Source: a virus. From it: a stretch of DNA of 64,000 nt. Below the pieces are notes generated by a model. It searched no databases. It was not told where the DNA came from and saw only the letters and a list, made by a program, of their open reading frames with translations. Each line of letters begins with the position of its first letter. Position 1 is the stretch's first letter. Location of the stretch: positions 1 through 64,000 of the IMG/VR virus record IMGVR_UViG_3300025030_000046. One strand, given 5' to 3'. Below, piece after piece: positions 7,470-63,700 of this stretch. The position numbers and the translations under genes were made by a program.

Positions 7470-7621
7470 TCCTTCACCTCCTAAATTTCAATAGAATCAC
7501 TCTTTCATCGTAAAACCGTAACCGCAAACCCTACAGCCATGCCAGTTACAAAACAGACTAAAAACAAAATTACGTATTCTAGGTAATTACTCATGTTTTT
7601 CTCCTATTTTTATATTTTTGT

Positions 7622-8524
7622 TCAATACCTTAATTCTCCTCTGCTTATTTTATTTCTTATTTCTTCAGCAAATAACTTCGCATTGTTTAACTCATCCTTT
7701 TTAAAAGTACCTAGTCTTTTTTGCTTGCCATCAATTTTAAATCGTACAATATATTTTTGTTCTTTCTCGCTCCAAGATACATTTTTAATTTGAGTAATAT
7801 TTCTTTTTAGAGGTTTATCAGAAATGTTACTTGATCTTTTATTTATTGGACGAATAATATCGTTATTTTTATCTCCCTTTTCAATTCTTCTATATATTGT
7901 TTTATATGATATATTATATATTTTAGGTAATTCTACAATTGATTTCTTTTCTCCATTTATTTCTACTTGTTTTAATTTATCATAATTTATTTCTTTTTTT
8001 CTTTTTCTACTAAATTTTTTAAAAGGTTTTCTTTTATTTATATTTTGAATACTGTCAGTTACCCATCTACAATTTGTAGGCTCATAATTTCCATCATTAT
8101 TTATTCTATCTATTTCTAATTTTTCATCATATCCGTTTTTTAACGCCCAATTATAAAAATTGATAAACCCGTTATCTTCATTTAACCATTCATCACAAAT
8201 ATTTATACCTCTGCCTCCATAATTATAATAATATTGATTTTTAGAATTACAGCAACGCTGTTTCATCCCATGATAAACTTTGTATAATTTATGATTCGAT
8301 AAGTTATGTTTTAAATGTATTTGTGAGACAATTTCTTTATTTAAACAACCACAAGATTGTGTTAATCCACTTCTTAAACTATTTCCACATATTATTTTCT
8401 GTGTTTTATTTATACAATTACATTCACACAACCATTGTGGCTTATTATATTTATTGTTTTCTACTCGTTTTAATACTGTAAATCTTCCAAATTGTATACC
8501 CGTTAAATCTATAAATGCCCCCAT
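7622..8524 (-). CDS. HNH-family homing endonuclease with C-terminal AP2-like domain
   Basis: DLTG..FGR, CECNC, SCGC, YGGRGI.IC.EW, IDRINNDGNYEP.NCRW; AP2-like NVSW...RLGTF. Confidence 0.85.
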   Translation of the reverse strand: MGAFIDLTGIQFGRFTVLKRVENNKYNKPQWLCECNCINKTQKIICGNSLRSGLTQSCGCLNKEIVSQIHLKHNLSNHKLYKVYHGMKQRCCNSKNQYYYNYGGRGINICDEWLNEDNGFINFYNWALKNGYDEKLEIDRINNDGNYEPTNCRWVTDSIQNINKRKPFKKFSRKRKKEINYDKLKQVEINGEKKSIVELPKIYNISYKTIYRRIEKGDKNNDIIRPINKRSSNISDKPLKRNITQIKNVSWSEKEQKYIVRFKIDGKQKRLGTFKKDELNNAKLFAEEIRNKISRGELRY

Positions 8525-8539
8525 TTTAAATCCTTTCAA

Positions 8540-9121
8540 CTATAATAATTTTCTTGCAATCTCTTTCCAATTTTTACATCTTGCGTCTTGCCATTTAATA
8601 TTCCAATCTTTAATTTCGCCAAAACATATTTTTGAATTAGCATTTGAAGTTTTTAAATTACTATAAACATCATCAATAAAGATTGATTCATATTTATTAT
8701 TTACATTCATGTTAACTATTCCTTTATCCATTTTTACTCCATCATTTACAAGCAACACCGAGTTCTTTATAAATGGCAGCTTTTCCTTTATAAATAAAGA
8801 TTTTCGAGATATATTCCCATATGTACCAACACTCGCAATTATTATTTTGTACTTCTCATTCAACTCTTCCAGCACTTCATAAGCATCTGGCATAAATTCA
8901 AGCACATGGAAGAATTCAAATGAGGCAAACATATCGTCAATTCTATCAATTGCCAATGGACATTCTTCTCCAAAATCCCATCGTTTATTGTTTAGATAGT
9001 TGGCTGGTTTATATCCAGCAACATGTTTATATCTCATGTCGTAAGCGTCACAATATGCTTTAGAACTATTTACTATGCAATCATCAAAGTCCAAAAATAA
9101 ATTATATTTCATATTTTTCAT
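8540..9121 (-). CDS. HAD-family 5'(3')-deoxyribonucleotidase
   Basis: FLDFDDCI HAD motif I and FIDD motif; nucleotide-metabolism neighbourhood. Confidence 0.75.
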   Translation of the reverse strand: MKNMKYNLFLDFDDCIVNSSKAYCDAYDMRYKHVAGYKPANYLNNKRWDFGEECPLAIDRIDDMFASFEFFHVLEFMPDAYEVLEELNEKYKIIIASVGTYGNISRKSLFIKEKLPFIKNSVLLVNDGVKMDKGIVNMNVNNKYESIFIDDVYSNLKTSNANSKICFGEIKDWNIKWQDARCKNWKEIARKLL

Positions 9122-59788: not shown

Positions 59789-60459
59789 ATTGACCTCCAG
59801 TTTTATATTTTGTTTCAATAAATTTCAGATTCTATTATAATTCTTAATTAAAATAAATCTGTAAATTCCATTACCTTACAACCTTCAAATTCTGCTCCTT
59901 TTTGTGTATTATTTGCCTGTAATTGTTCTTTTTGTTCGATGAAAAAATAAGGATATTCCAAATACGTTTTATTATCTATGTCATCAACATTGTAACCCAA
60001 AGTATTTACATAATTAATTACTTGTTGACACTGATTTTCGTCCGTGACATGTATTGCTATTTCTCCATTTTTAAAATTTTCTTCTAAAAACCTATTATTC
60101 ATATAATTACGCTCCATTTTACATATCAAATTTAGTATTTATTTAAAACGCTGTACTTCTTTTTATATTGTATTTGCTTAATATGTCATTTAACTTTGTT
60201 ACATGCTCGCTATTTCCATCCATACCACCTAACTCATCGTCAATATATCCATAGCACATATCAATTAAATATTGCAGATCTTCGTTATCTACTTTTAACT
60301 TAGCTATTATTTCTTTATCGTTGGCTATTATATTACTCGTAGAAAAATCTTTAAATGTCATCACTGGCTTTCCTTCTTTATTTGATATAGTCATCTCGCA
60401 TCCATCTTTTATTTTAAATTTATCTATCATACTATCTCCTTTCTGTATTAATACAACGT

Positions 60460-60782
60460 TCATTTAATTGCATTTTTAGCATCTTGCTCACACATAAACA
60501 CTGTCTTATTAATTTCATCACTATCTATCTCAATATGACCTTCACAATAACTGTAAGAATCAAATTTAAACATAAATCCACTATTAGATATAAATCCACT
60601 ATTAGATATAAATCCACTATTAGATATAAATCCACTATTAGATATAAATCTTATTTCAATAACTACACCAGAATAAACACTAGCTAAAAATCGCCATCTG
60701 CCACAAGTTCATTGTCTTCTTCGGCACAATAAAACAATTTAGTACCAATTTGTATTGGAAGATCTATTAAATAATTTAACAT
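60460..60782 (-). pseudogene. Hypothetical ORF with (FISNSG)x4 repeat, broken by a 1-nt indel near 60686-60690
   Basis: MLNYLIDLPIQIG...ADGDF then stop; one extra T continues LASVYSGVVIEIR-(FISNSG)4-FMFKF...AIK*. Confidence 0.55.
60572..60650. repeat. 18-bp tandem repeat ATAAATCCACTATTAGAT, 4.4 copies
   Basis: Exact copies at 60572, 60590, 60608, 60626; partial at 60644. Confidence 0.95.
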
Positions 60783-63700
60783 TTTTTTTTCTTACCTTTC
60801 TATGAATTTTAGTTTTATTTTATTTTGTAAATTATTTCATAGTTATTTACCATGTCATCAATATATTTAACTGGAATATTAAAATATCTAGGTGGTAAAC
60901 CCAAACTCTTAATATATGGGTTATCGTCCATTATGTCTATAGCATACTCTGTTTTAATATTTATGTGATCTACACTATCTTCTTCATGTTTTTCATACAA
61001 TAAATCAATAACCTCATATAATTCCATAATTATATCCCCTTAGATAAAACTTAATTTCTATTGACCTTTTACGTTTTGTTTTTGCAAAAATTGTTCAATC
61101 GTTTCTAGATTATTATTAATCTTATATTGGCTCATTATACTAAGCAAACTATCATAACCCACTCTGTATTTATTACATGTTTCTATTAATTTTATTGATG
61201 TTTTTTTATCAAATCCTGCCTTTTCAAAAAAATTATACTCTTCCATTATATCCTCCAATCTAATTAAAACTCAAATTTTATCGTATAACCTCAAACCAGC
61301 AATATGTATAATTCCATTTTTACCTCTATATCCATCAACCTCACATGTGTAATCCTTGCCGTTAGTGACATCTAGACTATGAACATATTTGCTTTTTATA
61401 AAATGCTTGCAAAACCATGTTTTAAACCTTTTTAGCATAAAAAACCTCCCTTTTTAATAAAATTCAAGTTTTGTCTACTTTATTATTGATATATTTATCT
61501 AATATTTCATCTAAATCTGGGCATATCCAATTCCATTTATAGTCACAATCTTCACAAATTAAGTTATAATCAGCTAATTGAACAAGTATATTATCGCTAT
61601 TGCATTTAGGACAATGATGTATACTACCTCTTTTAATCCCAATATCTTCATAAAATGGCATTAATCTTCTTTTACCTCTTATGATGTCATCATTCATAAA
61701 TAAACTCCTTTCTAAATAAAGTATCTCTTTCATTTAAAAATAATCATGACCCATAATTTCTGTATCAACCTCTCTAAATTGAATATTAAATGTATTTTCA
61801 ATAAGCGGTTTGATTTTTCAATGAAACATGTGGGGCAAACATCTATTACATATCCTGTTCTACAATCTCCTTCTGGATAATTACATCCTAACTTTGCATT
61901 AATATTTACTTCAGACTGTTCATAACTTTCTCTATTTGACATATCTATATTACATATGTCGCAAACAACTTTATCTATTACTTCTCTTTCTTTAATTAAT
62001 TGTGGTTCAATCTTTATAAATTTCATAGTATACCTCCATACGAAAGTTTCATTTTATATTAACTTCTTTTCTTTCTGATAATATATCCATAAACCAAAGT
62101 AAATCTTCTTTATTCCTCAATCCTCCAACAAGCTCACAAAAATCACTTCTTTGTTTAACAGATAATATATTCCAAACAGATGCAAAATCTTTAAGTAATT
62201 CGAATATACCTATAAATTGTCTTGGAAAACTAAAACTACATTCTTCTTTTGGTAATGATAATTTAAAAATAGGTAATGTTTCTCCGTTTTCATATAAATA
62301 AGATAATCTTATAGATGCTACATTTAAAATATTATAAATATTAAACTTATTATTCATAATTTTCTCCCTTTCAATAAAGTAATACTTTTATATTAATTTA
62401 CAACCATTTTTCTTTAATCTTTTGCAATCTTTTATCTTCTTCTATGGGTAAGAGACACCTTGTATCGCCATCAGCATAGCCACTATTATAAAAAACTTCT
62501 AGCATTGATATTAATATTTCAAAAGCAGTTTTAAAATCTGGAGATTTTAATAACTGTTTTAAAATATCACAACTACACCAAGCACCACAGTAATCACGAA
62601 TTTCACCATAGGTTTGCTCTATATATTTAATATCTTTGTATAATTGCTTGTATTTACTGGATAAATTTTCCATATGATTCTCCTTAAAATTTCACATTTA
62701 TTGAATCTTCTGTTTGTCACTTCTACAAGCTAATTTCTTATATTTAATTTTTATACAATTATGAGGATTTCCCTTGCATATAGAAACATCTGCTACAAAA
62801 CTATTTTCACAACATGGAGAACTACTTGGAGATTCTTCATAATAAGAACAATTACCGCCTAATCTATTCTGTGGTTTGTCTGGATTATATCTTGGTTTTC
62901 CCTTACTCATCATAAACTCCTTATAAAATTTTTCTTTTATCTAAATTCTTTTCTCACCTTTAGAAAATCTTCCATTACTTTCTGGATTGTATTCATATTC
63001 TTTGTCGCAAACAGTACACTGTAACCAAGATGCGCCATTTACGCCTACGTCATTTAGCTTACTTTTCTTAGAGAGCTTACCGTTTGTTAAAACCTTATTA
63101 CTTTCTTCATAGGTTTTTTCGGCTACTAATTTTAATTGACCACCGCAATCGCATTTAAATTTACTCATCTTCTCACCTCTTTAAACCAATCTGTGAATTT
63201 ATCTTAATTTGTATCTAATATATTCTATTACATCTTCTTGCCTATGCCAATCATCTTCCCAATACTTCGTACCCAACTCTTGTCTTATCATTCCCATAAT
63301 GCATTGAGTTTCTATCCATACTTTATATGGATTTCTTTTCTCTGGGCTGTAAGTAATCGCCATATGACAGCAGTTATAATCAACTACAATTTGAATATAA
63401 TTCTTCTCTGTCTTCAACATATCATTAAAATAATAGACTGGTTTTATAGGCTGCTTATTTGAATTATATGTTGGTTTAGGTTTCTTCCTATTAAGATGCT
63501 GAATAATTTTATCAAACATAGGATATTCATTCATATTATCACTTCTTTCTCACATTCTATTTCGTAACCTTACTCGCAGTAGGGTTACAAATTCACATTT
63601 CCATATAAAATATCCTTTTCATTTAAACTATAATTTAATATACTTTAATACAACTAATATAAATGCTAAACTATACAAAATTTTTATGCTTATTTCTAAA

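Follow-up and report, generated by a model that had tools for sequence, protein, structure and literature searches.

The stretch analysed here (the window) covers the initial 64 kb of the genome of an uncultured phage (139,239 bp, 29.4% G+C), IMG/VR virus record IMGVR_UViG_3300025030_000046 (hereafter G000). It carries dispersed copies of a composite element, in which an AT-rich 18-bp site (18-mer) lies at a set distance from a 27-bp imperfect palindrome (27-mer). The genes of G000 are on the minus strand from about 3.8 to 84.5 kb and on the plus strand after about 89.7 kb; those on the minus strand include PolIII alpha with an intein, DnaB, primase, NAD ligase, NrdD, HNH endonucleases and a serine integrase. 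Seven composites of 18 + 15 + 27 bp had been listed in a preliminary description of the window, five with the 27-mer on the right and two with the 27-mer on the left; all their coordinates were reproduced exactly. An eighth copy of the 27-mer (3841-3867) was said there to lack a clear partner; an 18-mer is found at 3817-3834, at a gap of 6 bp.

Anatomy and positions of the composite element

The 18-mer is a symmetric 6-6-6 AT-rich dyad, ATAAAA-N6-TTTTAT; in the composites of the window it reads ATRAAA-N6-TTTYAT, with ATAGAA in one copy. The 27-mer is a G+C-containing dyad: inverted 9-bp arms, TGWAACCCT and AGGGTTWCA, flank an asymmetric 9-bp centre (window consensus TGWAACCCT-N9-AGGGTTWCA, an imperfect palindrome). 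The sense-strand alignment of 40 27-mers from eight phages gives the consensus TGAAACCCTTGnGnCAGTAGGGTTTCA, again with inverted 9-bp arms and an asymmetric 9-bp centre. A position weight matrix (PWM) built from the copies retrieves further 27-mers in the whole of G000, at 109510, 116234, 93060 and 3841. The copies are listed below without a strand of their own; ORF, open reading frame; RBS, ribosome-binding site.

3817-3867: composite; 18-mer 3817-3834 (score 15.8), 6-bp gap, weaker 27-mer 3841-3867 (score 24.0); in a convergent spacer, next to a putative recombinase fragment, a tRNA and the serine integrase; the same 18-mer + 6 bp + 27-mer arrangement is kept in the relative G009.
7491-7550: composite; 18-mer 7491-7508, 15-bp gap, degenerate 27-mer 7524-7550; between two HNH endonuclease genes on the minus strand.
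22399-22458: composite; 18-mer 22399-22416, gap, 27-mer 22432-22458 (top score, 35.7); centre in the minority orientation.
37759-37818: composite; 18-mer 37759-37776, gap, 27-mer 37792-37818; a AAAATATAAAA box lies between 18-mer and RBS, and a split C5 methylase cassette lies upstream.
39069-39128: composite; 18-mer 39069-39086, gap, 27-mer 39102-39128; each strand has a good fold (-12.3 and -11.4 kcal/mol).
53914-53973: composite; 18-mer 53914-53931, gap, 27-mer 53947-53973, within which falls the stop codon of the upstream ORF 53954-54586; folds poorly (-3.2 kcal/mol).
57208-57267: composite, mirrored order, with 27-mer 57208-57234 and 18-mer 57250-57267 on the two sides of the gap; read in gene direction, a SpoU-like gene has its stop inside the 18-mer, and gap, 27-mer and the RBS of a YodL-like gene follow, both genes being on the minus strand; a second, weak 18-mer-like match lies on the opposite side (gap 14, score 8.5).
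63563-63622: composite, mirrored order, with 27-mer 63563-63589 and 18-mer 63605-63622 on the two sides of the gap; read in gene direction, the 18-mer comes first, and 28 nt separate the 27-mer from the start codon.
109477-109536, outside the window: composite, mirrored order; 27-mer from 109510, gap 15.
116201-116260, outside the window: composite, mirrored order; 27-mer from 116234, gap 15.
93060-93086, outside the window: lone 27-mer, with no 18-mer partner.

Two orders are found in gene direction. Order 1 (27-mer, gap, 18-mer, RBS) is that of the copies at 7491, 22399, 37759, 39069 and 53914, of five sites in the relative G004 and of others. Order 2 (18-mer, gap, 27-mer, RBS) is that of the copies at 57208, 63563, 109477 and 116201 and of two sites in the relative G003. 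Both orders are represented among the composites flanked on both sides by co-directional genes, which is the case of nearly all of them according to a rough coding-potential scoring. The centre of the 27-mer is oriented one way relative to transcription in 26 of the 40 copies and the other way in 8 (ambiguous in 6), or in roughly 19 versus 5 when orthologues are counted once by hand; this orientation is independent of the side on which the 18-mer lies.

Some neighbouring features are recorded here in their own right. A possible 31-codon hydrophobic mini-ORF, read by eye on the minus strand, runs from 7551-7597 into 7491-7550, crosses the degenerate 27-mer and ends in the 18-mer. The C5 cytosine methylase gene (37830-38772) is split into two overlapping ORFs of 70 and 246 aa. 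About 2.5 tandem copies of a 17-bp unit lie at 39129-39169, just upstream (sense) of the 39102 27-mer. Beside the 3817-3867 copy, ORF 3871-4284 has a weak coding score and matches solely the zinc-ribbon part of serine integrase; on both grounds it is probably a recombinase fragment. A tRNA gene (4235-4306, minus strand, 57 bits) overlaps the 5' part of this ORF.

Spacing and conservation

In G000, an 18-mer lies at a gap of exactly 15 bp from 9 of the 11 strong 27-mers and at a gap of 6 bp from one; the last has no partner. The intergenic density of the 18-mer is 0.0017 per position (PWM score of at least 10); for any one gap, with both sides counted, this amounts to about 0.0035 per 27-mer. 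The binomial probability of 9/11 at one given gap is estimated at about 4e-21, with a slight circularity, the 18-mer PWM including the composite copies. The strict 18-mer pattern is found 37 times, against 8.7 +/- 3.0 in 30 Markov-2 shuffles; about 40 of the 51 strong matches are intergenic, most of them directly 5' of the RBS of a minus-strand gene.

Ten genomes (G000 and nine relatives, G001 to G009; 1,347,542 bp) were scanned with thresholds of at least 14 for the 27-mer and at least 9.5 for the 18-mer. An 18-mer is found at 25 bp or less from 27 of the 41 27-mers, at gaps of 6 (n = 4), 15 (n = 20), 16 (n = 2) and 25 bp (n = 1), where about 0.6 pairs are expected by chance (background density 3.0e-4 per position). 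From there out to 200 bp, only two partners were found, at 168 and 190 bp. These counts are not all independent: to judge from order and sequence, eight of the sites in G009 correspond to sites in G000, four of them with BLAST support. A scan of IMG/VR in which the gap was left free from 5 to 30 bp gave six matches, with gaps of 15, 15, 15, 15, 16 and 25 bp. The permitted classes (6, 15/16 and 25 bp) differ by 9-10 bp, about one helical turn. Spacing examined over the whole genome and the relatives, as the preliminary description had proposed, places the 18-mer at a few fixed distances and not at random. The 15-bp spacing that was called invariant there holds only for the window; in relatives, gaps of 16, 6 and 25 bp also occur.

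Seven orthologous pairs of composites were compared (six G000/G009, one G000/G003). The gap is 15 bp long in 7/7. Identity is 80/84 in the 18-mer arms and 102/126 in the 27-mer arms; it is 64/105 in the gap and 92/210 and 97/210 in the two flanks (189/420 together), near background. The earlier statement that gap sequences are not conserved largely stands, with the reservation that a weak consensus is found near both ends of the gap.

The 27-mer is present in G000 and G003-G009, phages that are divergent and come from several metagenomes (eight at least), and forms sub-families with common centres within and between genomes; at the scan threshold it is absent from G001 and G002. The 18-mer is enriched relative to shuffles in G000 (37 versus 8.7), G001 (44 versus 10.0) and G003 (36 versus 12.0), and no enrichment is seen in G002 or G004. 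The two sites are therefore separable across relatives, which argues for two readers. Both late-region composites (109477 and 116201) recur at orthologous junctions in G003, where the adjacent proteins are only 25-30% identical and the composites sit behind intrinsic-terminator-like hairpins. The 158-aa gene downstream of the 116201 composite has no composite upstream at any of five further relative loci inspected by eye.

A proposed paired docking site and its alternatives

Pairing within the 27-mer was compared, in the 40 copies, with a control in which the 3' letters were permuted among sequences. The two arms pair in 75.8% of the cells of the 9-bp stem, against 75.9 +/- 1.1% in the shuffles (281 of 500 at least as high), and no covariation of the stem is found (score 0.101 versus 0.104 in shuffles). 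The stem has A or T at positions 3 and 25, which change independently of each other and give 17 mismatches in the 40 copies. The 87 unpaired stem cells comprise 23 of AC type and 64 others, and a further 14 cells are of GU type on the sense strand; there is therefore no sense-strand wobble bias. Folding reaches -9 kcal/mol or better in 7 of 18 copies and is -5.5 kcal/mol or weaker in 8; the sense strand is the better folder in 11. Rfam has nothing at the sites at gathering score, and gives only chance-level matches on one copy (E of at least 0.55, searched up to E = 10). The arms are conserved as sequence rather than as pairing.

The absence of selection for pairing, the kept arms, the drifting gap of fixed length, the whole-turn gap classes and the equivalence of left and right together fit proteins that read duplex DNA from one face of the helix. 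The DNA-level nucleoprotein site suggested in the preliminary description is supported by the lack of covariation, the poor folds, the lack of wobble bias, the partner on either side and the turn-spaced gaps; the opposite outcome considered there, a 27-mer acting only as an RNA hairpin or terminator, does not agree with the covariation result or with the absence of any terminator-like match (G+C-rich stem and T run) at the seven composites of the window (0/7).

The composite is tentatively proposed to be a protein-docking element with two helically phased sites, by which transcription would be gated or insulated where gene modules join. One protein (a dimer or two monomers) would read both conserved arms of the 27-mer, and a second protein would read the AT-rich dyad of the 18-mer. 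The set spacing would place both proteins on the same face of the helix, where contact would be possible. The two mirror orders are proposed to exist because both sites are dyads: the pair would work equally well with the 18-mer on either side. The complex would occupy the untranslated junction of two co-directional genes, where a gene module begins or ends, and would most likely gate transcription through this junction as an operator, a roadblock or an insulator, like the dispersed operators of SPbeta-like phages.

Several observations weigh against this proposal. The asymmetric centre of the 27-mer, aligned with transcription (26 versus 8), is superfluous for a plain dyad operator; such an oriented centre would suit a recombination core, an RNA element or a promoter element with a direction just as well. 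Its identity between orthologues (47/63) is above that of a usual dimer spacer. The 16-bp gaps are 1 bp off helical phase. In G007 (loci L321, L322 and L323), the 18-mer lies inside terminator-like hairpins: at sites 28584, 53764 and 73565, it tops a longer G+C-clamped hairpin with T/A runs, terminator-like on both strands, and is still 15 bp from the 27-mer. SroF of phi3T, a member of the MrpR/SroF repressor family, recognises an asymmetric box of 26 bp that contains two A-tracts, and does so as a monomer (preprint 10.1101/2025.11.27.690993), whereas both sites are dyads here; this known repressor family is therefore not an obvious reader of either. Finally, presence/absence profiling over the nine relatives pointed to no regulator. 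Fifteen genes were found in 4 or more of the 7 genomes G003-G009; of these, three with an identical profile are limited to genomes bearing the 27-mer (a YopP-like gene and two structural genes), a signal confounded by relatedness and by contigs that are 62-78% complete.

Site-specific recombination is an unlikely explanation of the composites. On this view, a phage recombinase would swap or excise cassettes by way of the 27-mer, a core site whose asymmetric centre would be the place of crossover, with the 18-mer as accessory site. In its favour, inverted 9-bp arms around an asymmetric, orientation-biased centre resemble the known architecture of recombinase core sites, and the phage encodes a serine integrase, a YopP-like tyrosine-recombinase-like protein and an integrase-fold MrpR homologue. 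The mosaic boundaries also count for it, or for a boundary role only. G000 and G009 align over 34,465 of 139,239 bases; at two of the four alignable sites, the homologous blocks (37759-37823 and 109421-109535) end, at 37823 and 109535, at that edge of the 27-mer which faces away from the 18-mer. Runs X3 and X5 show a joint 37823->38842: from that same 27-mer edge on, 20 letters stand in place of the split methylase cassette (37824-38841). Module edges are thus marked by the element. However, the breakpoints lie outside the site and not at its centre, and the other two alignable sites (the 3841 and 93060 copies) lie within long blocks conserved with G009. In four metagenome runs, no joint links two composites among those listed (15 of the 87 in the joint table and 12 more; four composites covered). 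There are just 11 sites for about 230 genes, and the accessory site would lie on either side relative to the orientation of the centre. The YopP-like protein (88257-89351), the only extra tyrosine-recombinase-like gene product, is below the Pfam cut-off (PF00589, 26.5 bits versus 27.1) and has a Lys at the expected second catalytic Arg in a by-eye, unverified alignment; a sequence search of the PDB with it gave nothing at E <= 0.001 and only three chance-level matches (E 0.35-0.47) at E <= 5. MrpR-family proteins are described as non-catalytic repressors (PMC10516654).

Direct repeats flank few copies. A 14-bp repeat, TTTGTTGTACCCCA, at 3795 and 3875 (3795-3888), brackets the 3817-3867 unit beside the integrase locus; this repeat unit may be part of attP or an old insertion scar. 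It is the one point of this kind in favour of recombination: the long repeat is found only there, two late-region copies having AT-rich repeats of 10 and 8 bp, and target-site duplications were rejected as an explanation on this ground. No transposase family was found beside the 39069 copy, and an IS200/IS605-like element was rejected there, the pair of 366-aa and 137-aa proteins being without a Pfam family. The preliminary description had seen in the composites a crossover core with an arm site, donor sites or attI-like sites. No composite-to-composite joint was found among those listed, nor any general target duplication, so that this reading is left unsupported, and no direct support was found for the integron-like cassette model which the composites were thought to back. 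That the 27-mers are core sites of a recombinase-fold protein (YopP-like or MrpR-like), with the phased 18-mer as accessory site and modules excised, inverted or swapped at the outer edge, appears improbable; if true, it would mean that a virus of the SPbeta type has a cassette system comparable to an integron or a shufflon.

A regulated promoter is likewise improbable. The 27-mer arm near the 18-mer would be a weak -35 (GTTWCA) and the first half of the 18-mer (TAAAAT/TGAAAT) a -10, 16-17 bp apart, with the palindrome as an activator or repressor site centred near -42. The spacing of the hexamers in order 1 fits, being 16 (gap 15) or 17 (gap 16) in five G000 copies, five G004 copies and several other relatives; moreover, three late-region 27-mers come after intrinsic-terminator-like hairpins, so that new transcripts must begin nearby. 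Nevertheless, a promoter-like match from 27-mer arm to 18-mer is predicted at only one of the seven composites of the window (63563-63622), in antisense, and total counts are no higher than in shuffles. The six mirrored copies (four in G000, two in G003) would fire away from the adjacent gene despite co-directional flanks, gaps of 6 and 25 bp are unusable as -35/-10 spacers, the presumed -35 arm is the less conserved arm in G000, and the G008 pair lies upstream of a separate consensus promoter.

More doubtful still is an RNA-level element, with the 27-mer as an mRNA hairpin (an RNase III-like processing site, a stabiliser, a terminator or a protein-binding structure) and the 18-mer as a second, weak hairpin. 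The sites are transcribed, within or between co-directional genes; the orientation of the centre tracks transcription, most copies (11 of 18) have their more stable fold on the sense strand, and a T run follows the 27-mer in G007. All this is opposed by covariation equal to that of shuffles, by the 8 weakly folding copies, by mismatches that are mainly non-wobble and without sense-strand bias, by the lack of terminator-like matches in the window and by the lack of an Rfam family at gathering score; equal gaps 5' or 3' and turn-spaced gap classes have no RNA rationale. Of the five runs found, none is listed as an RNA data set.

Least probable is that the copies descend from one ancestral 60-bp module, or are linkers like PeSLs (promoter-early stem-loops) favouring homologous recombination, with no spacing-dependent protein complex: sub-families share centres within and between genomes, mosaic boundaries coincide with the 27-mer edge and PeSL cassettes of T4-type phages mediate such shuffling (PMC2839356), but the gap keeps its length in 7/7 orthologous pairs while falling to 61% identity, its classes differ by 9-10 bp in unrelated contigs where neutral descent would scatter them through indels, and no strong promoter or terminator of the PeSL kind is detected.

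Other candidates were rejected. A universal hairpin was one of them. The exact arm pattern alone matches 36 viral stretches (25-71% G+C) and at least 120 bacterial stretches of many phyla; these are read as ordinary hairpins, to be expected as background in an estimated 596 Gb, and not as relatives. The neighbours of these loci have no common gene family beyond near-duplicate contigs, and none of the 80 bacterial loci examined has an 18-mer scoring above 3.8 at gaps of 10-20 bp. A mimic of CRISPR repeats was rejected, there being a single match per genome locus and no arrays. Readings of the arms as ECF-type (extracytoplasmic function), sigma-54-type, LexA, CodY or cre sites, made by eye against the usual consensus sequences, were dropped, the partner being missing or the spacing unfit.

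Phage context, known operators and significance

SPbeta-like phages are a model for arbitrium signalling and for integrase-fold repressors, and their known operators are single boxes. On its predicted gene content, which includes homologues of YopR/MrpR, YopQ, YopP, YonV, terminase, portal and other virion genes, the present phage is SPbeta-like. Its MrpR/SroF-family protein (65343-66299, minus strand) matches PF22822 (MrpR_N_CB, 72.2 bits) and PF22823 (MrpR_C_cat, 56.4 bits; cut-offs 27), shares 28% identity with SPbeta yopR along 97% of its length and adjoins a YopQ homologue. From these matches it is a candidate reader of an AT-rich box in G000. The genome also encodes a CI/LexA-like repressor (64679-65320; HTH_3 and Peptidase_S24).

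A third motif, AAAATATAAAA (fuller form (C)TAAAATATAAAA(T)), is found in about 50 intergenic regions genome-wide. Examples, in genome coordinates:

27401-27516: intergenic region with the third motif.
50726-50811: intergenic region with the third motif.
57723-57832: intergenic region with the third motif.
64029-64116: intergenic region with the third motif, past the end of the window.

It lies just upstream of, or within the spacer of, consensus TTGACA-17-TATAAT promoters, or directly before the RBS. In SPbeta, MrpR binds the dispersed SPBRE repeat at ten promoter regions (PMC10516654). SPBRE, as derived from seven of these upstream regions, is a 17-bp AT-rich near-palindrome with three kinds of position: ahead of the RBS, between the -35 and the -10, or 5' of the -35. 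The third motif has the same three placements and is A-tract-rich like the phi3T SroF box; the AAAATATAAAA/TAAAATATAAAA motif is likely to be the operator of the MrpR homologue, for which it is a better candidate than the 18-mer or the 27-mer. The 18-mer as the counterpart of SPBRE, an earlier candidate, is weakened by this motif and by the phi3T structure paper.

Some further features of G000 were recorded. Rfam finds elsewhere in the genome just two tRNAs and one skipping-rope RNA (RF02924, 57 bits, 49327-49467, minus strand, within a 571-bp spacer). The PolIII alpha-like gene (27517-31872, minus strand) carries an intein with a LAGLIDADG homing endonuclease. Short tandem repeats of CTAATAGTGGATTTATAT units lie near 60.6 kb (60464-60814). 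The head of the late region encodes a CoiA-like nuclease (90122-91039, plus strand) and a 349-aa protein (91020-92069, plus strand) with a weak match to sigma-70 region 4 (E about 1e-3, below cut-offs). An identical 26-bp hairpin is present at both ends of the record (93-118 and 139197-139222), which suggests the terminal overlap of a circularly assembled genome.

The composite resembles the SPBRE and Phi3TRE repeats of MrpR/YopR/SroF in being a dispersed intergenic repeat (about ten SPbeta sites, in promoter regions or before the RBS; PMC10516654 and the seven upstream regions), in a phage that encodes an MrpR-family protein with YopQ- and YopP-like neighbours. It differs in that SPBRE is a single AT-rich box of 15-17 bp (same sources), whereas two different dyads lie here at helically set distances. 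The phi3T box is 26 bp, asymmetric and bound by a monomer (10.1101/2025.11.27.690993), whereas one dyad is G+C-containing here; neither the 27-mer nor the 18-mer is a single asymmetric A-tract box of the SPBRE/Phi3TRE type. PeSLs of T4-type phages are likewise short non-coding composites placed where accessory genes meet, and mosaic breakpoints lie next to them too; they carry a strong sigma-70 promoter and a working terminator (PMC2839356), neither of which is detectable in the composites of this phage. The composites show no promoter or terminator calls of the PeSL kind, coincide with boundaries at 2/4 sites, and give no PeSL-type mini-circle or inter-copy exchange among the joints listed (15 of 87 and 12 more).

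Paired or spaced palindromes are also known from other systems. CIRCE, the site of HrcA, is a 9-N9-9 palindrome; the K-boxes of ComK are A4N5T4 pairs 8, 18 or 31 bp apart; phi29 p4 sites are a further case. The 9-N9-9 layout of the 27-mer, the A4-N6-T4 core in the 18-mer and the restriction of pairs to whole turns recall these sites, which pair like with like, whereas two different dyads of other sequence are joined here. No HrcA-, ComK- or p4-like protein was found in this phage, no search aimed at one having been made. With integron attC sites and tyrosine-recombinase cores, the 27-mer shares imperfect arms ending AAC ... GTT, an asymmetric centre, an orientation bias with respect to genes and a junctional position. 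The attC arms are RYYYAAC / GTTRRRY, which the 27-mer arms do not fit, and pairing is not maintained here; no integron integrase or attI was found in this phage.

By analogy, the paired element is taken to be a further form of the dispersed operator repeats of SPbeta-like and other phages. The whole-turn spacing that ties a G+C-containing dyad to an AT-rich one, conserved in at least eight phages, suggests a second site class, which would point to at least one more DNA-binding factor marking module boundaries in this phage group. Under the spacing rule, function is predicted with a gap of 6, 15 or 25 bp but not with one of about 20 bp. The composite is a short bait sequence with which its protein may be fished out, and it bears on where mosaic boundaries are placed in large temperate phages.

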